Shown here in pieces: positions 36,976 through 51,966 of a stretch of 64,000 nt of DNA. The stretch lies in IMG/VR virus record IMGVR_UViG_3300019874_000003. One strand, 5' to 3'. Within the stretch, counting starts at the first letter, position 1. Each line of letters starts with the position of its first letter. A program made the translations under genes and the position numbers. The notes under the pieces are model-generated. The model made no database searches, was not told the DNA's origin, and worked only from the letters and a program-made list of their open reading frames with translations. Source of the stretch: an uncultured virus (IMG/VR IMGVR_UViG_3300019874_000003) (lineage: Duplodnaviria; Heunggongvirae; Uroviricota; Caudoviricetes).

Positions 36976-37177
36976 CTCGGTCACGCCATGATGGCGGCTG
37001 CACAGTCGGCCGCGCGAACTGCTTCGCTTGCAGCGGCACCAAGCAGTCCGGACGTCGGCTGCGTGAGCGTCGAATGCGCGAGCCGTTGCTTGCTGATTAC
37101 CGCTCCGTCTGCACCTGCGGATGGATCACGAGCCTTCCAACATGCCCGATGTGCGGGCTTCCCAGAACCGAGGACAC

Positions 37178-38605
37178 ATGAAGATCATCGACCCATTCGA
37201 CTTCGGCGTGCGTGGCGACGGCATCACCGATGACCGTGCTGCCCTCCAGGCTGCTCTCAACTCCGCTGTGGCTGGCGACGTCGTCCGTCTGACCAAGGGT
37301 AACGTCCGGGCTGATGGACCCTATCTGTTGGGTAACTTCGACGGGAGCTCGTGCCTCAACATCCCGGCTGGCGTCGCATTCAGCGGCACTGGCGGTGAGC
37401 AGGCACGCCTCCTCGCTGCCCCCGGGATCCCCGGCGGTGTCCGCATCATCGACATCAACGCCCCGGACGTGACGGTCTCAGACCTGATTCTGGATGGCAA
37501 CGCGGCAAACCAGCCGACGCCAACGGAGCACATGCACGGGCTGATGACGCGCGGTGCTCGTACGATCCTGAGCGGCGTCGTAGCCACTGGGTGCTGCGGC
37601 GATGGGTTCTACGCGTACACCGGCGCGTTATCGCTGGCGATCCTCGACTGCATGGCCACGCTCAACGGGCGCCATGGCATCACGCTATCGGGAACCTGGG
37701 ATCACGGCATCATCAAGGACAGCCGCCTGGTCGACAACAAGGTCAACCAGATCCATACCGAGGCGGGGCTGATCAACTATATCGTCATGCTCGGAAACAA
37801 GGCGTCGAAGCACGAAGCCACCGACTACATGGTGACGATTGGCGGCATCAGTTCAGCCCAGCGGTCGATGCATTGGGACATTCTCGAGAACCAGTTCGAC
37901 GGCGGAATCCTGGTCGGGTGGGCCGACGACATCAAGATCTACGACAACAAGAGCAACAACACGAGCGCCCGACCGTGTGTCACCGTGCAGCGGACTTCGA
38001 AGAACATCCGGATCTACCGGAATGACTTCACGATGGAGCAGACGACGGACCAGGCCACCGGCGTCATCGCAGTGACGGGAACCGCCGAGGGCGGTCCCGA
38101 GCGCGTCATCATCGAGGACAACCAACTGACCGCGCTCGGCCACCCGCATTCATTCGGGGTGCGGGTGGAGGGTGCCGTATCGGTGCAGGTGATGAACAAC
38201 CGCATCGACGGGCCGGGGATCAACGTGGCGCCAACAGCCACCGATCACGGGTCCCGGGGCAGCGCCGGTGTGTACGCTCGAGCAACGAGCCCAGATCGCA
38301 AGTTCTCCTCGATGATCATCCTCAACAACCACATCCGCGACTTTGGTCAGTTCGGTGTCTCGATCATGGGCAACGGCGCCGCCGAGATGACCCGCCTCGA
38401 CGTCATAGGCAACGTGTTCGACGATGGCGCCGCCGGCACGATGATGACCGGGATCTCGCTGGACCCGTGCATCATGGATCTGACCATCGGCAACAACGTG
38501 CTGTCGGGTGCGTGCATACGGGAGAGCCCCCCGGATCCCTCGATGCAGCCGGGCAACGAGGTTCCACCGCGGACGTTCTCGCCGCATCGGTGGATCCGGT
38601 CCTGA
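37178..38605 (+). CDS. Right-handed parallel beta-helix protein (pectate-lyase/depolymerase-like)
   Basis: DFGVRGDGITDDRAALQAALN N-terminal signature and repeated I.dN strands. Confidence 0.85.
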   Translation: MKIIDPFDFGVRGDGITDDRAALQAALNSAVAGDVVRLTKGNVRADGPYLLGNFDGSSCLNIPAGVAFSGTGGEQARLLAAPGIPGGVRIIDINAPDVTVSDLILDGNAANQPTPTEHMHGLMTRGARTILSGVVATGCCGDGFYAYTGALSLAILDCMATLNGRHGITLSGTWDHGIIKDSRLVDNKVNQIHTEAGLINYIVMLGNKASKHEATDYMVTIGGISSAQRSMHWDILENQFDGGILVGWADDIKIYDNKSNNTSARPCVTVQRTSKNIRIYRNDFTMEQTTDQATGVIAVTGTAEGGPERVIIEDNQLTALGHPHSFGVRVEGAVSVQVMNNRIDGPGINVAPTATDHGSRGSAGVYARATSPDRKFSSMIILNNHIRDFGQFGVSIMGNGAAEMTRLDVIGNVFDDGAAGTMMTGISLDPCIMDLTIGNNVLSGACIRESPPDPSMQPGNEVPPRTFSPHRWIRS

Positions 38606-39223
38606 TGGACGACGAGCCGGATACCTTCGAGGTCTGCTTTGATGATGCGGTCAACGTGCGATGCCAGTCCAGGTACACCACCCACCCAGGCCTCCTGGTT
38701 GGTGACTGGTACATCGTGCACAATGTCGGAGCGTCTAGTATGGGTATGGTCATATCTATGACGACGTGGCCGGACAACAGGCGGTTCTCCGTCGGCCATC
38801 AGGACACAGGGCTTGCCATAGTGTTCGGGATAGAGTTCCGGGAGGCGCAGAGGATCGCGCGGGCACTCGTCGACGCCTGCCTGGACATCGAACAGGAGTT
38901 GGCAGATCCGGATCCGGACATCAAATATATCATCGACGCCATCATCGGATCTGCCCTCATGGACCACTACGTGTTCCCGATCGCCGGGTGGTCTGTATGA
39001 CCCTCTACAACGAGATCGACCCATTCGCCGCCACCTGGCTGGAGAACCTCGCCGCCCATGACCAGATCGCGCCCGGAATCGTCAACCGTCGCTCTATCGC
39101 CGACCTCACCCCAGCAGATGTTGCTGGACATGGCCAGTGCCACTTCTTCGCTGGCATCGGAGGCTGGTCCCTCGCGCTCCGCCGAGCTGGAATCAGCGAT
39201 GACGCCACCGTCTGGACTGGGTC

Positions 39224-40135
39224 ATGTCCCTGCCAGCCGTTCTCGGACGCGGGCGCGGGGGGGCGGAACGAGCGACCCTCGACATCTTTGGCCAGCATGG
39301 TTCGCACTCATCGAGCAGTGTCGCCCTCCAGTCATCTTTGGAGAGCAAGTTGCGAGCGCGGATGGCCTCGCGTGGCTCGACCTTGTTCACGCTGACCTGG
39401 AACGATGCGGTTACGCCGTCGGGGCGGCGGATCTGTGCGCTGCGGGCGTCGGTGCGCCACACCAGCGGCAACGCCTGTACTTCGTGGCCCACGCCAGTGG
39501 TCAGCAGGGGCGACTACAGCTACGCCCGCGGGGACCACGAGGCGCCGACGCTCAAGCTGAGCGGGGCGGCGAAGACAGCATCGTGGCCAACGCCACTGGC
39601 GGGCGGCGGCGGGGAACGCGGAGGGAGCGAGGCACACATGGACGGCCGCCGGTCGAACTTGATGGACACCGTGATGACAGCGTCATGGCCGACCCCGGTG
39701 GCTCGGGACCACAAGACGGGCGGGATGGACGGCCAACTATCGACCGTAGCGCCGATGTCGGCGTGGTCGACGCCGATCGCGAGCAACGCCAACGGGGCGC
39801 GCGAGTACGACGGGAAACGCGGGGTAGGCCTCAACTCGGAGGTCAAGACAGCGTCGTGGAACACCCCCGCAGCGCACGAGGCCGGCGGGACGCCAGATCA
39901 GTTCATGGCTCGCAAAGCCAAGGCCAAGGCCAAGGGAGCGAATCTCGGCGTGTCGCTAACATCACTGTCGATGCAGGCGCAACTCGCGGACCCTGGGCCG
40001 ATGCCGACTGGATCCTCTGTCGAGACCCCGCCGGTGGACCGCCCGTCGCCCGGCCAGTTGAACCCGGAACACTCAAGATGGTTAATGGGGTTCCCGGCGT
40101 GCTGGAGCACGTTCGCCCCAACGAAAAAGAAGTGA
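39224..40135 (+). CDS. Alternate-frame methyltransferase beta chain (WPTP repeats plus motif IX); true start uncertain
   Basis: Five W[PSN]TP repeats and GQLNPEHSRWLMGFP; entirely overlaps the alpha frame. Confidence 0.7.
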   Translation: MSLPAVLGRGRGGAERATLDIFGQHGSHSSSSVALQSSLESKLRARMASRGSTLFTLTWNDAVTPSGRRICALRASVRHTSGNACTSWPTPVVSRGDYSYARGDHEAPTLKLSGAAKTASWPTPLAGGGGERGGSEAHMDGRRSNLMDTVMTASWPTPVARDHKTGGMDGQLSTVAPMSAWSTPIASNANGAREYDGKRGVGLNSEVKTASWNTPAAHEAGGTPDQFMARKAKAKAKGANLGVSLTSLSMQAQLADPGPMPTGSSVETPPVDRPSPGQLNPEHSRWLMGFPACWSTFAPTKKK

Positions 40136-40594
40136 ATGTCGCGATGCAAGAAATGCCAGGCCGAGATCGTGGACTACACGACGACGCGACAGCGTGTGTT
40201 TTGCAACAGGGTATGCATGGCGTCTTGGATGGAGGGGCGCACGAGGGTCATAAACCCCAAGAATGGCCGTCGGCAATCCGCGAAGACGGCGAGGCCGGCA
40301 TGCGAGTTATGCGACAAGGCGTCGACCAGGCTAGCAGTCCACCATATCGACGAGGATGCCACCAACAACACGCCATCAAACCTGATGACGTTGTGCGGCT
40401 CCTGTCATCGTCGTTCTCACTCGCGAAACTTCGACGCGACGACAGGACAACGGAAGCCATGCAAGTACTGCTCGAAGCCTGCGGAGAAATGCGGCTTGTG
40501 CAACACCCACCTCTCAAGGCTGAGGAGGCATGGAGATCCATCAGCGAAGAAATACAAGACCAAATCCGGCTGGGTCTTGGGGCATTCATCATAG
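40136..40594 (+). CDS. HNH endonuclease nested in the methyltransferase gene
   Basis: CELC...LAVHHIDEDATNNTPSNLMTLCGSCHRRSH, with flanking Zn-finger-like motifs. Confidence 0.85.
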   Translation: MSRCKKCQAEIVDYTTTRQRVFCNRVCMASWMEGRTRVINPKNGRRQSAKTARPACELCDKASTRLAVHHIDEDATNNTPSNLMTLCGSCHRRSHSRNFDATTGQRKPCKYCSKPAEKCGLCNTHLSRLRRHGDPSAKKYKTKSGWVLGHSS

Positions 40595-40785
40595 AGCCGA
40601 CATTCCCGCTGGCTCATGGGGTTCCCGGCCGGGTGGGGCTCCTACGCGGTTACGGGAACGCGATCAACATCGAGGTAGCCGTGCAGTTCATCCTGGCCTC
40701 ACTCGAAGCGATCTCTTCATGACTTGCCAGTGGCAAGGGTTGCGTGCATGATGACCACCATGAGTTATGAGACTTCAACGATTGC

Positions 40786-40902
40786 GGTCGCAGTGCTGAC
40801 GTAAGCGCGCGACCTGGCAATGGCGGTAGCCCGCGAGGTGAGCACCCCTCGGCTCACCGACGCACAGCCCTGGAGGTACCACCCGATCTCCGGGGCCCGC
40901 CA
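40786..40902 (+). ncRNA. Putative structured leader RNA upstream of the ParB-like gene
   Basis: Stems GGTCGC/GCGACC, and TGGCGG/CCGCCA enclosing GGTGAGC/GCTCACC and GCCCTGGAG/CTCCGGGGC. Confidence 0.35.
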
Positions 40903-40937
40903 CTTTTCACCCTGCACGTACCACGAAGGAGACTGAG

Positions 40938-42179
40938 ATGCGCCAGTTCGAAGATGAAGACGAGATCGAAGACGACCAGGTCATCGCGGATGATCCGAAC
41001 GAGGAACCGAACAACGACGAGGTCAAAGACGACGAGGACGACCTCGACGTCACCGAGGACATCACCATCGTCGGCGTCGACGAGACTGGCGACGCGACCA
41101 CGGCCGATGACGAAGCGGAGGTCATCGAAGCGGAGCCTGACGGATCGGATCTGGTCACGCGCACGACGCGCTGGGTTCCGCTGGGCGAGCTCCGGCTCGA
41201 GTTCGGATGCTGGACGAACCCACGCGAGTTCACCGGGCTCAGCGCAGACGACATCGACATCCTCGCGGCGAGCATCCATTCGCGGACCGCGCAGATCGAC
41301 GAAGCGACCTACGCCGGGATTAAGGATCCGCTCGAAGTCGTGCGGATCCTGGCCAACGGCAGCGTCATCAACCTCGTCATCGACGGCCAGCGGCGCCACA
41401 AGGCCGCCACCAAGGCGTATCGGGGCGACGAATCTGTCCTGATCCCGGTGGTGGATCTCGAAGATGAGCCCATCGAGAAGCTCACGCCAGCGCACGCGAA
41501 CAAGTACCTGCGGACCGCGCTCGAAATGGTTGGCACCCGGTCTGGGCTCAGCTCCTATGAGCTCTCCGAGAGCGCGCAGAAGCTGCGCGGGACCATGGAC
41601 GAGAACACCTCGAAGGAATTCACGCTTGCCGCGATCGCGACGATCGTCGGGCGTAGCGAGTCCTGGGTCTCGAAGATCCTGAAGGCCAGGGGGGATGCCA
41701 AGCCGGCACTCCTGAGCCAGTGGAAGAAGGGCGAGATCACGGACGAGCAGTTCAAGGATCTGGCCAGCGTCAAGACGCCGGCCGCGCAGGCCAAGGCCGC
41801 GGAGGCCGTCGTCGAGGCGCGCAAGGCCGGCGACAAAGCGGCGTCTCGGACGATCGCCAAGGAGCAGAAGGAGATCGTCAAGGCTAAGGCCGCAAGGACG
41901 CCCAAGGCCGCGAGGGGACCGGTGGTCAAGGGCGAGCAGGAGGAGATTCCGCTCGCGCCGCCCCGGAAGTCGGTCCCGTTCCCGGTCGTGGAAGATCTTC
42001 TCGACCAGAGCAAGAAGCACCCGCCCACCCACGACTACGTCAAGGGCATCATGGATGGCGTGCGCTACGCAAACGGCCTCATGGACCCGGCGAAGTTCGC
42101 CGGGCCATGGCACACGTACCTCGACCACGTTGGCGGCAAATCCGCCGCGTTGAAGAAGAGGGGCGGCAAGAAGAAGTAG
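40938..42179 (+). CDS. ParB/Srx-like protein with HTH
   Basis: NPRE...LAASI...GIKDPLEV...VIDGQRRHKA; IATIVGRSESWVSKIL HTH; acidic N-terminus and basic C-terminus. Confidence 0.85.
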   Translation: MRQFEDEDEIEDDQVIADDPNEEPNNDEVKDDEDDLDVTEDITIVGVDETGDATTADDEAEVIEAEPDGSDLVTRTTRWVPLGELRLEFGCWTNPREFTGLSADDIDILAASIHSRTAQIDEATYAGIKDPLEVVRILANGSVINLVIDGQRRHKAATKAYRGDESVLIPVVDLEDEPIEKLTPAHANKYLRTALEMVGTRSGLSSYELSESAQKLRGTMDENTSKEFTLAAIATIVGRSESWVSKILKARGDAKPALLSQWKKGEITDEQFKDLASVKTPAAQAKAAEAVVEARKAGDKAASRTIAKEQKEIVKAKAARTPKAARGPVVKGEQEEIPLAPPRKSVPFPVVEDLLDQSKKHPPTHDYVKGIMDGVRYANGLMDPAKFAGPWHTYLDHVGGKSAALKKRGGKKK

Positions 42180-49719: not shown

Positions 49720-50568
49720 TCATTCGAGCAATCCACTGACGAGTCCGGCCCCGATCACATCAAGCTCGTCTTGGGACACCGAGTCGACGTACCGGGCTGC
49801 GGTGTTCATCGACTCCCATCCCATGTACTTCTGGAGCTTCAAGATGGCCTGCGGGTCACCCTTGAGCTCCTTGAGGTAGTTCGTCGCGAAGGTGTGGCGG
49901 TACCGGTGGGGGTTCATCTTGAACACGCCGACCTTGTGCGCCGTCCTGCGTGCGGCCCGCCACACCTTCTTGCTGGCGATCTTCGGGTTCCCTGAGGTGC
50001 TGATGAGGTCCCGGACTCGCTCCCAGTCCTCGAACTCGACCAGGGCCTCGAGCTGCGGCCGGATGGGCGCTGCCGAGAACTCGAGCTGCTTCCTCCCCTT
50101 GCCCTCGTAGATGAGCTTGCCACTGGAAAGCGCGGCCTCCATCTCGGTGCGCTTCATGCGGAGGATGTCGCCAGACCGGAAGCCGCGAATCGCCATCAGC
50201 AGGAGTACATGGCGCATCGCCTCGTTCGTCATCTTGCAGGTCTGGATGTGCTTGATCACCTTCTTCCACTCGATGACCTCGAGCGGCAGCTTGATTCGCA
50301 CGCGCCGCGCCGGCGGGAGGCGGATGTCAGAAAGTCGCTTCGCCAGCTTCGTGTCATCTGAGTAGAGCGCCCATGCGCGAAGTGAAGCCAGGTTGGTGCG
50401 GAGGCTGTTCGGGGCCAGCTTGCCAGCGACCAAGCGGTGGGTCAGGCCATTCTTGTCAGCGACGCAACTGCGAAGGTTAGAGATGTACAGGGAGGCGGTA
50501 TCGACAGACCGGCCGCGCTCCAGAAGCCAGGACCGGAACTCATCGAGGTTCTTGTCTGAGATCTCCAC
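49720..50568 (-). CDS. Tyrosine recombinase/integrase
   Basis: GFRSGD (R), GKGRK (K), PHRYRHTFAT (HxxR), MGWES (W), RYV (Y). Probable GTG start at 50568. Confidence 0.92.
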   Translation of the reverse strand: MEISDKNLDEFRSWLLERGRSVDTASLYISNLRSCVADKNGLTHRLVAGKLAPNSLRTNLASLRAWALYSDDTKLAKRLSDIRLPPARRVRIKLPLEVIEWKKVIKHIQTCKMTNEAMRHVLLLMAIRGFRSGDILRMKRTEMEAALSSGKLIYEGKGRKQLEFSAAPIRPQLEALVEFEDWERVRDLISTSGNPKIASKKVWRAARRTAHKVGVFKMNPHRYRHTFATNYLKELKGDPQAILKLQKYMGWESMNTAARYVDSVSQDELDVIGAGLVSGLLE

Positions 50569-50589
50569 GCTTGCGATAGGATAGCACTC

Positions 50590-51966
50590 ATGAACGACAG
50601 CCGTGACGCCGTCATCATCGACATCATCAACGACGCCGCGCGCCAGGTCGCCACGGGACCTGGACGGAGAGTGGCGTGGATCCGAGACGTCTGGAACCAG
50701 ATCATCCGCAACGGCAAGTCCGGTGGGATGCCGTACGAGGACTTCAAGCACGATCTCGAGCGGCTGTACCGCGCAAGGAAGATCTCCTTGGCGCCAAGGC
50801 CAACCGTCCGCGGTCTCCAGTCGATAGAGGCGGATGAGTCCGAGCTCGACATCGATGGCCGGCTGCTCTACCTGATCAACATCCCCGAAGAACATCAGCG
50901 CAGCAAGCCGCGGCCGGCACAAGCTGGGGATTTCGCCAACAGCGTGCTCGAGATCGCGCGCAGCGTGGGTCCCGGCTTCGGCGACCGGAGGGTGTTCATC
51001 GGCGACATCTGGGCACAGGCACAACACGTTCCTGAGTTCCGCGCGATGGGCGATCAGGAGTTCAAGCGTCGGCTGATCGCCGCGCACCAGGCAAGCCAAC
51101 TTGTCTTGTCGCGCGCGGACCTCGTCAGTGCGATGGATCCTGACAAGGTCGCTGCCTCGGAGACCGTCGGCAATGGAGCGACGTTCCACTTCGTCAATAT
51201 CGAGCCGGTGAAGCGTAGGAACCCAGCACGCCGGCCAGGCAAGAAGTCCCTTCCACTTGTGCGTAACCCGCCAAAGTGGGTGTCCGAGATGATCGCCGGT
51301 TCCTACGAGACGCTTGAAGACACAGTGCCCCCCCGGTGGCTACCCAAGCTCACCAACATCGAGAGCCTGGGATCCGGGATCGCTGGCGATACCAAGGAGT
51401 ACGGCTGCGGTGCTTACGGTTGCGTGTTCCCGACGATGGATGAGCACGTCGTGATGAAGGTTACGCACGACGATACTGAAGCGGAGTTCGCAGCCCGGAT
51501 GTCAGCTACGCTCGTCGCGCCGATCTGCGTCAAATACCACCTAGTCCTAAAGCTCGACGCGGAGCATGACGGCCACGGCGTCTACCTGCTCTGGCGGGAC
51601 AGTGCCTCGTGGGTGGGGGATCTCGACGCATACCTCGACGAGAAGTTCGATGACCCCAATGCCGGCGACGAGTTCACGCGGCTCGTCAACAGCCAACACG
51701 ACGCCGCGAAAATGGCGATGGTCGCCCTCCACCGCAACTCGCCGCCGAACGTGTACAAGCCGCTCCTCAACCGCTGGGAGCGCATGCTGCGCAAGATGGC
51801 AGAACAGGACGACATCCCGCAGTTGGCCGAGTTGGCTGCTGGCATGCTGGAGGTCTACCTCGAGCAGCACATCGCCATCCTGGACGTCCACTCCGGAAAC
51901 ATCGGGATGGTCGGAGACAGGTGGGTCATCACCGACCCCGGTCACGTCGTCGTCATCGAACAGTGA
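50590..51966 (+). CDS. Multidomain protein: tandem duplicated domain, RRNP linker, protein-kinase-like domain
   Basis: YGCGAYGCVF, VVMKVT...E, DVHSGNIG, ITDPG; linker KRRNPARR...VRNP. Confidence 0.75.
   Translation: MNDSRDAVIIDIINDAARQVATGPGRRVAWIRDVWNQIIRNGKSGGMPYEDFKHDLERLYRARKISLAPRPTVRGLQSIEADESELDIDGRLLYLINIPEEHQRSKPRPAQAGDFANSVLEIARSVGPGFGDRRVFIGDIWAQAQHVPEFRAMGDQEFKRRLIAAHQASQLVLSRADLVSAMDPDKVAASETVGNGATFHFVNIEPVKRRNPARRPGKKSLPLVRNPPKWVSEMIAGSYETLEDTVPPRWLPKLTNIESLGSGIAGDTKEYGCGAYGCVFPTMDEHVVMKVTHDDTEAEFAARMSATLVAPICVKYHLVLKLDAEHDGHGVYLLWRDSASWVGDLDAYLDEKFDDPNAGDEFTRLVNSQHDAAKMAMVALHRNSPPNVYKPLLNRWERMLRKMAEQDDIPQLAELAAGMLEVYLEQHIAILDVHSGNIGMVGDRWVITDPGHVVVIEQ

Follow-up and report, generated by a model that had tools for sequence, protein, structure and literature searches.

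The 64,000-nucleotide (nt) stretch analyzed here, referred to below as the window, comes from an uncultured virus of the Caudoviricetes (IMG/VR record IMGVR_UViG_3300019874_000003) and contains a DNA methylase locus in which an HNH endonuclease gene is nested. We consider it quite probable that this locus is a mobile HNH cassette within a two-frame cytosine-5 (C5) methyltransferase, one chain of which, alpha, is read through the cassette. In the mechanism we propose, a phage or prophage DNA cytosine-5 methyltransferase would be made as two chains from the same DNA: alpha would carry catalytic motifs I–VIII plus X, and beta, encoded in the next frame, would carry the WPTP recognition cassettes and motif IX. 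A 531-bp HNH homing-endonuclease cassette would have been inserted into the short segment that encodes both motif IX of beta and the strand preceding motif X of alpha, bringing with it a recoded beta end, a purine-rich stretch that encodes a Lys/Arg tail and also acts as ribosome-binding site, a stop codon, and an HNH open reading frame (ORF) in the beta frame. Beta would then end on the cassette copy, HNH would most likely be translated by re-initiation after the beta stop, and translation of alpha would continue across the cassette, adding a mostly unstructured loop of 177 residues, until it reaches the resident copy of the segment and motif X. Selection on the read-through frame would amount to stop avoidance only. 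The observations behind this proposal are the anatomy of the locus, the insertion relative to empty alleles, family-wide stop avoidance, a scattered distribution, and the lack of an intron or intein signal. The coding parts are as follows (frames are given as position modulo 3, mod 3).

38997..39263, + strand: alpha chain, N-terminal part, with motif I (FAGIGGW) and motif IV (SCPCQPFS); mod 3 = 0.
39265..40722, + strand: alpha chain, continued, with motifs V–VIII (VIFGEQV, HQRQRLYFVA) and a stop codon at 40720–40722; mod 3 = 1.
39224..40135, + strand: beta chain ORF, 303 amino acids (aa), with ATG at 39224; mod 3 = 2 (frame alpha+1).
40136..40594, + strand: HNH endonuclease ORF, 152 aa, with its ATG immediately 3' of the beta TGA; mod 3 = 2 (beta frame).

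The first-pass annotation of this DNA, made from its letters alone, had noticed that the alpha frame stays open over both the ORF with WPTP repeats and the HNH ORF. We confirmed this: the ORF at 39058..40722 (+ strand, 554 aa, mod 3 = 1) has no stop across either of them, over 554 codons. Downstream of motifs V–VIII, alpha contains a linker overprinted on beta, then ADADWILCRD..RPVEPG, followed by the 177-residue read-through of the cassette and by TFPLAHGVPGRVGLLRGYGNAI (motif X). This continuation could be aligned to the single-frame alphas of BcepC6B gp33, Haboob and the collected loci L004, L007 and L192. The N-terminal part of alpha was 78% identical over 88 aa (tblastn) to alpha of L192, which is free of HNH, and scored 21.4 bits with Pfam PF00145, slightly below the cut-off of 22. 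Beta starts with a conserved LQSSLE..GSTLFTLTW region, which is followed by five WPTP-type units, and its C-terminus consists of motif IX (LNPEHSRWLMGFPACW) and a short Lys-rich tail, the ORF finishing with LNPEHSRWLMGFPACWSTFAPTKKK. Beyond the HNH stop, the beta frame reads SRHSRWLMGFPAGW. The motif HSRWLMGFPA.W does occur twice in the beta frame on either side of the HNH gene, as first described: it is found as HSRWLMGFPACW from 40070 and as HSRWLMGFPAGW from 40601, with a spacing of 531 nt (177 codons). The window thereby contains a beta with motif IX in an alternate frame within the alpha gene, and these sequence features support an alpha/beta two-frame C5 methyltransferase with a layout of the M.EcoHK31I type.

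Similar methylases are widespread in phages. A blastn search returned 176 phage records with matches at 39005–39495 and 40600–40692, the middle being unmatched, and relatives of beta were found in 120 phage records (tblastn). The alphas of BcepC6B gp33 and Haboob are 344 aa long; the beta-frame ORF is annotated in Burkholderia phage vB_E264, and both overlapping coding sequences (CDSs) are annotated in K1ind2. Beta matched the PHROG family phrog_1008, "DNA methyltransferase", with an E-value of 6.2e-31, and NCBIfam gave no name for either beta or the 554-aa frame. In 83 of the 88 HNH-free loci collected, the alpha frame runs open from the N-terminus over the entire beta gene as far as motif X, and alpha motifs I–VIII and X also lie in one open frame in 23 HNH-bearing loci. 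A predicted alpha-beta complex for L192 scored 0.91, a mark attained by 116 of 157 solved complexes and by 2 of 215 mismatched pairs, and the best of three controls scored 0.00. Contact agreement between runs was at least 68%, and the predicted local distance difference test score (pLDDT) of the partner was at least 58. In this model, motif IX of beta touches motifs VIII and X of alpha. The prediction supports binding of alpha and beta to each other and would be in line with activity as a heterodimer; the high score may stem from a resemblance to single-chain C5 methyltransferases of solved structure.

Alignment to HNH-free homologs mapped the inserted DNA and its flanking repeats.

40068..40598, + strand: inserted cassette of 531 bp, comprising the recoded left copy, a new beta tail, a stop and the HNH ORF, as defined by alignment to empty alleles L201 and L192.
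40068..40108, + strand: left copy, cassette-borne and recoded, used only by beta (for motif IX) and read as GTLKMVNGVPGVLEH in the alpha frame.
40599..40639, + strand: right copy, resident, which serves alpha only (PTFPLAHGVPGRVGL); its beta-frame reading, HSRWLMGFPAGW, lies behind the HNH stop and is a by-product that is not translated.

The empty alleles L192, L194 and L201 come from IMG/VR contigs of ~80 kb. All three frames of L192 and L201 were read; both loci have the ParB-like gene downstream and no HNH, and their uninterrupted reading is RPVEPG(A/T)FPL(A/V).G.PGRVGLLRGYGNS. L194 served as an additional empty-allele comparator; it was included in the tree described below, and its alpha is among the uninterrupted HNH-free ones. 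The DNA of the window is collinear with the empty alleles on the left up to ..GTTGAACCCGGAAC and on the right from ACATTCCCGCTGG. These comparisons support the view that the HNH gene was inserted into a locus that lacks it in syntenic relatives. Its composition also differs from that of the host gene, with a guanine-plus-cytosine (GC) content of 0.565 in 40109–40598 versus 0.674 in the flanking methylase. The pair L118/L248 was considered as a close occupied/empty pair as well; these loci have only the N-terminal 470 nt in common (71% identity) and were of no use for junction mapping. A separate observation concerns L201, the closest HNH-free relative, in which a single frameshift at 2300–2500, in the WPTP region, shifts both frames, alpha and beta, in concert; it reflects either a mistake in the assembly or a further copy in decay.

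The two 41-nt copies are identical at 30 of 41 bases, so that the insert opens with a repeat of the sequence located just after the insertion site. Empty alleles match the right copy at 31–34 of 41 bases versus 26–27 for the left copy. In HNH-free alleles, the alpha reading F-P-L forces CGN for the motif IX Arg, and an AGR codon was found at this position in none of 64 such alleles versus 8 of 9 HNH-bearing left copies. The recoding TCA AGA ..TTR recurs across divergent HNH-bearing loci, and the recoded copy therefore most likely travels with the cassette. Judged from these alignments, the dual-coding segment is duplicated and divided, the left copy going to beta and the right one to alpha. 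The right copy of L004 illustrates this division: its beta reading has decayed and contains a stop, and its alpha reading is conserved. The suggestion that the insert supplies a replacement C-terminus for beta is thus supported by the recoded left copy.

The position of the HNH start suggests how the third protein might be made. In 33 of 70 loci, 0 or 3 nt separate the start from the stop before it, and the start is often found behind AAGGAGG-like runs that double as code for the Lys/Arg tail of beta. In the window, the sequence at the beta stop and HNH start is GAAAAAGAAGTGAATG. This arrangement points to translation of HNH by termination-reinitiation coupling to beta.

In GC-rich DNA, a long open frame need not encode anything. 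The methylase has a GC content of 0.67, long spurious ORFs are abundant nearby (for example, 40854..42128, - strand), and alpha is frameshifted here, as described below, with another frameshift in L201. Together, these features could be taken to mean that the long alpha frame is a high-GC by-product in a decaying pseudogene cluster and that no read-through protein exists. Several analyses make this very improbable. When the ORFs of the window were shuffled among synonymous codons, with composition and codon usage preserved, the alpha frame was open across HNH in 59 of 5000 shuffles, across beta in 162 of 5000 and across both in only 3 of 5000. Moreover, in the family as a whole, frame +2, the host frame, is free of stops in 76 of 79 distinct HNH ORFs, against 2.0 expected from 500 synonymous shuffles per ORF; a few of the 79 ORFs are truncated, L085 (6 codons) being one. 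The three ORFs with host-frame stops (L016, L174 and L191) all occur without a methylase nearby. The other alternate frame, +1, is full of stops, being open in 2 of 79. Loci with a GC content of 0.39–0.45, where 7–9 stops are expected, still have an open host frame. Among 69 open ORFs, T in the third position before codons beginning with AA, AG or GA was seen in 0 of 2952 cases compared with 1901 of 7310 elsewhere; the zero follows from the selection of open frames, and the size of the avoidance is given by the 26% baseline. The claim that the insert keeps the alpha frame open is thus borne out at the level of the family, and stops in the alpha frame of homologs, which would have spoken against it, are confined to the three ORFs mentioned. 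These data support the idea that the alpha frame is kept open across HNH by selection.

Four-fold degenerate sites under identical residues matched in HNH at a frequency of 0.306 (0.263 expected) versus 0.295 (0.255 expected) in a non-overlapped control (94 pairs). Because these sites are no more constrained than in the control, the read-through peptide appears to be kept stop-free and not to be conserved as a protein. An AlphaFold2 model of the 494-aa alpha of L231, another HNH-bearing locus, agrees with this. It had a mean pLDDT of 67.5 and a predicted template modelling score (pTM) of 0.50; averaged over blocks of 10, pLDDT was 81–97 for residues 1–170 and 82–93 for residues 471–490 (the motif X helix). 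Most of the insert was below 50, with the exception of a helical hairpin at 378–440. In our proposal, alpha would tolerate such a loop.

It is also conceivable that the insert is a group I or group II intron or an intein that is removed from RNA or protein, in which case the open frame would be irrelevant or would serve protein splicing only. The host frame is open, as it is in inteins, and the insert begins with a sequence similar to that beyond the site, a point discussed for introns in the accessible text of a recent study of a similar phage insertion (PMC11855218). On the other side, an Rfam scan of 38800–41000 detected no intron family, its single match, to a viral leader hairpin, being at chance level (E 0.53), and Pfam detected no Hint/intein domain in the 554-aa frame. 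The control-level four-fold sites of HNH also imply that the host frame contains no splicing domain, and an intron would not need open frames in 76 of 79 ORFs. We found no features of an intron- or intein-borne endonuclease in the window and regard such an element as highly unlikely; the first-pass proposal of an insertion without an intron or intein gains support from the Rfam and Pfam results.

The HNH ORF matched Pfam HNH PF01844 with 29.7 bits (cut-off, 21.4) as well as HNH families in PHROG, and it contains a CxxC..CxxxC finger, an HH..N..N..H core and a second Cys/His cluster. We identified 33 homologs with 36–60% identity, and in their alignment (A1), H69, H70, N78, N82, H91, H95 and eight Cys were invariant. 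Scans with the homolog alignment yielded 80 viral, 28 genome and 80 metagenome loci. The scan of genome contigs gave distant HNH genes only, one of which adjoins a C5 methylase in an Intrasporangium metagenome-assembled genome (L084). In nearly all close loci, HNH is located 3' of the alpha N-terminus, the end of beta is in the HNH frame and motif X is in HNH+2. A three-frame variant was found in L134 (400–2230) and L136 (780–2500): the catalytic chain (motifs I–VIII) ends early, and it is the beta frame (WPTP/motif IX), not alpha, that is read through HNH and ends in motif X. L157 (500–2200) has a similar layout, and its frame through HNH ends in a GNS-type motif X. A further HNH relative (34% identity, 87 aa) was seen in Brucella phages (e.g. 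KJ133688.1 3521–3805), where the features at this place are annotated both as a terminase large subunit and as an HNH endonuclease; here, too, an HNH gene may overlap a host gene.

The distribution of HNH among related methylases is disjunct. Among 80 loci retrieved with the alpha N-terminus alone, a nested HNH was present in one (L231, on the same contig as L004). An IQ-TREE (quick) phylogeny of 113 alpha N-termini requires 17 changes of the HNH label, at least 7 of them forced by starred branches, compared with a mean of 22.9 for shuffled labels; the HNH-bearing loci in it were taken from the HNH search and the HNH-free ones from the methylase search, which biases its frequencies. The window, whose frameshift was bridged with X in its tree row, falls in a starred clade of 11 rows, 10 of which are HNH-free. 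The HNH gene is probably selfish and would home by cleavage of the empty allele.

A different role for HNH should be considered as well. It could be a domesticated partner of the methylase, coupled or fused to beta and acting as a nuclease against unmodified DNA, so that the locus would be a compact restriction-like or anti-competitor module. Stop-less beta-HNH fusions in two loci, the abutting of the HNH start and the beta stop, and the tight and specific association of this HNH family with C5 methylase genes, in three architectures, all fit such a role. The finding of a nested HNH in just 1 of 80 loci taken by methylase similarity argues against it, as do the scattered occurrence among close relatives, the foreign GC content of the insert, and the cassette-borne recoded target copy, which is typical of a homing element. 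Thus, we see only a small chance that HNH is domesticated. The more specific version, in which HNH coupled or fused to beta would cut unmodified host or rival-phage DNA at the sites read by beta and form a self/non-self module, is similarly doubtful; if true, HNH and methylase would be a restriction-like weapon of three proteins in one gene.

For the homing cassette read through by alpha, which we prefer, there are several points on the debit side besides the biased sampling of the tree. The tree labels the three-frame loci L134, L136, L149 and L173 as "no" although they are HNH-bearing. In L112 (1150–1900) and L116 (1201–1935), beta and HNH are fused in one ORF with no stop, and these fusions fit a domesticated partner as well as they fit a selfish gene. 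The HNH of the window is ~19 residues shorter near the N-terminus than most homologs, with all Cys/His columns kept. The missing residues (40136–40200) correspond to a PRPRKPDP head and part of the first finger loop, and the four Cys of the finger are all retained. An HNH-free allele of the same strain was absent from the assembled contigs of four runs, and no joint skipping HNH was present in the assembled contigs of the runs compared, contigs being blind to minor variants. The structure and complex predictions are models only. Finally, alpha of the window is frameshifted, which makes the function of this copy doubtful. The site of the frameshift is the following.

39257..39263, + strand: run of seven G (G7), one base too long, which shifts the frame by +1 and interrupts alpha between motifs IV and V.

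The run is one base longer in the window than in all five of five HNH-free relatives. The frame of ATG 38997 (mod 3 = 0) terminates at 39395, and the frame with motifs I–IV joins that of 39058..40722 only if one G of 39257–39263 is ignored. Accordingly, no single open frame of the window holds alpha motifs I–VIII and X; by comparison, a single alpha frame extends from motif I through to motif X in L004, L007 and L192. The extra G was unchanged, with no other differences, in contigs of runs X1 and X2 from one soil sample, which are not independent, as one of them may be the source of the window. An allele with six G was not seen in the assembled contigs of the runs compared, which are blind to minor alleles. 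Because alpha is broken upstream by the additional G, the methylase of this copy is, as sequenced, probably inactive or switched off. Beta may be unaffected, as its conserved part starts downstream of the G7 run and it has an ATG at 39224. The earlier idea that both host chains survive the insertion is therefore not supported for this copy. The frameshift implies that individual copies of such loci can be off.

With regard to known systems, the layout resembles that of M.EcoHK31I. As described in the accessible part of the literature (PMC2836561), the beta polypeptide of that enzyme lies wholly in another frame of the alpha gene and carries motif IX, and both chains are required. In both systems, alpha has motifs I–VIII plus X, and beta contributes motif IX from an inner alternate frame. 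According to the same text, alpha of M.EcoHK31I also holds the target recognition domain (TRD) and its beta is small, whereas the present beta has ~270–300 aa and contains the WPTP cassettes. M.EcoHK31I is described there without a nuclease insert, and its likeness to the present locus is one of layout, by description (PMC2836561).

The closest precedent for the insertion is the ShiLan domain, a hidden out-of-frame HNH in DNA methylases of actinobacteriophages (Arsenault, Gosselin, Gogarten 2025, PMC11855218; earlier PMC9957025); the accessible text also describes a Pacc40 gp60 insertion. In the same portions of PMC11855218, the first 11 residues of the ShiLan insert are reported to resemble the 11 after the site, its distribution to be disjunct, no intron or intein to have been found, and the insert in the host frame to be predicted as a low-confidence loop with a small helical element. 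As far as this text allows a comparison, the window likewise has an alternate-frame HNH inside a phage methylase with no stops in the host frame, and the two cases share an insert start similar to the post-site sequence, disjunct distribution, the lack of an intron/intein signature and a low-confidence insert with a small helical element. However, ShiLan gp65 is an N6/N4 methylase (PF01555) and not a C5 enzyme (PF00145), and its HNH has 195 aa and is located in the other alternate frame than here. A tblastn search with two members of the present HNH family gave no Mycobacterium phage and hence no homology to the ShiLan HNH. The ShiLan host is, in the accessible text, a single-frame gene, whereas the present host is dual-coding and three proteins share the DNA; unlike the insert described in that text, the cassette must here carry a recoded end for the second host chain. 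A text search of PMC11855218, limited to its accessible part, found no mention of "cytosine" or "beta", and a search of the literature for nested HNH genes in two-frame C5 methylases returned the ShiLan paper and otherwise only work on other subjects, subscription journals being outside its coverage. A frame-preserving hidden HNH in a phage methylase was already published in 2025 (PMC11855218), and the combination with a two-frame C5 enzyme is, relative to the accessible text, a new variant.

A homolog of the present HNH family (34.7% identity) occurs in Staphylococcus phage CUB-EPI_14 gp45 (ON325435.2), where it is nested such that the annotated CDS, a 601-aa DNA-cytosine methyltransferase in HNH+2, reads through it. 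Unlike the present locus, gp45 encodes one chain of the Dcm type (PF00145, E 2.2e-83); its insert precedes motif IX, it has no beta frame, and its GC content is 0.36.

Among free-standing homing endonuclease genes, some supply a replacement end for the host gene or split it, examples being the Allomyces atp6 element and mobE in nrdA of Aeromonas phage Aeh1. They resemble the present locus in that invasion involves neither an intron nor an intein and that host function is kept by a duplicated or replacement segment. They differ in that they leave the displaced copy as a dead remnant or the host protein in split form, whereas here the displaced copy is used by the other frame and the host chain is read through. 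The fungal precedent for a replacement C-terminus was not found in the accessible part of a review of organellar introns (PMC8393795).

The locus represents extreme information packing: two different proteins are encoded in two frames of a ~0.5-kb stretch, and in the adjoining ~1 kb the two methylase chains likewise occupy two frames. It illustrates how a selfish nuclease can get into a dual-coding segment with neither product being killed, by duplication and recoding that leave one copy per frame. The signal seen across the family provides a clear case from nature in which selection favours "no stops" without acting on residues. Gene callers and annotators will mis-call such loci, either as one long methylase or as fragments.

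The genes surrounding the locus include a beta-helix tail-spike/tail-fibre-like protein at 37121–38605 (+ strand), a ParB-like protein with a very acidic N-terminus at 40938–42179 (+ strand) and a tyrosine integrase-like gene at 49720–51189 (- strand), and there are no transfer RNA genes in the 64-kb window. This context is compatible with a large phage or prophage. The 424-codon antisense ORF at 40854–42128 (- strand) overlaps the ParB-like gene and is the kind of long spurious ORF that is typical of GC-rich DNA; it means that open frames by themselves carry little weight in this region. Megablast with 24 kb around the locus revealed no close phage relative, and the only matches were of 190 nt in the methylase, in six Xanthomonas phages. 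Contig pieces of 151 nt from runs X3 and X4, which represent other soil and freshwater samples, are identical to parts of the HNH (40227–40661) and WPTP (39483–39781) regions, and run X3 also has a 3-nt deletion at 39602. Therefore, near-identical elements exist elsewhere.

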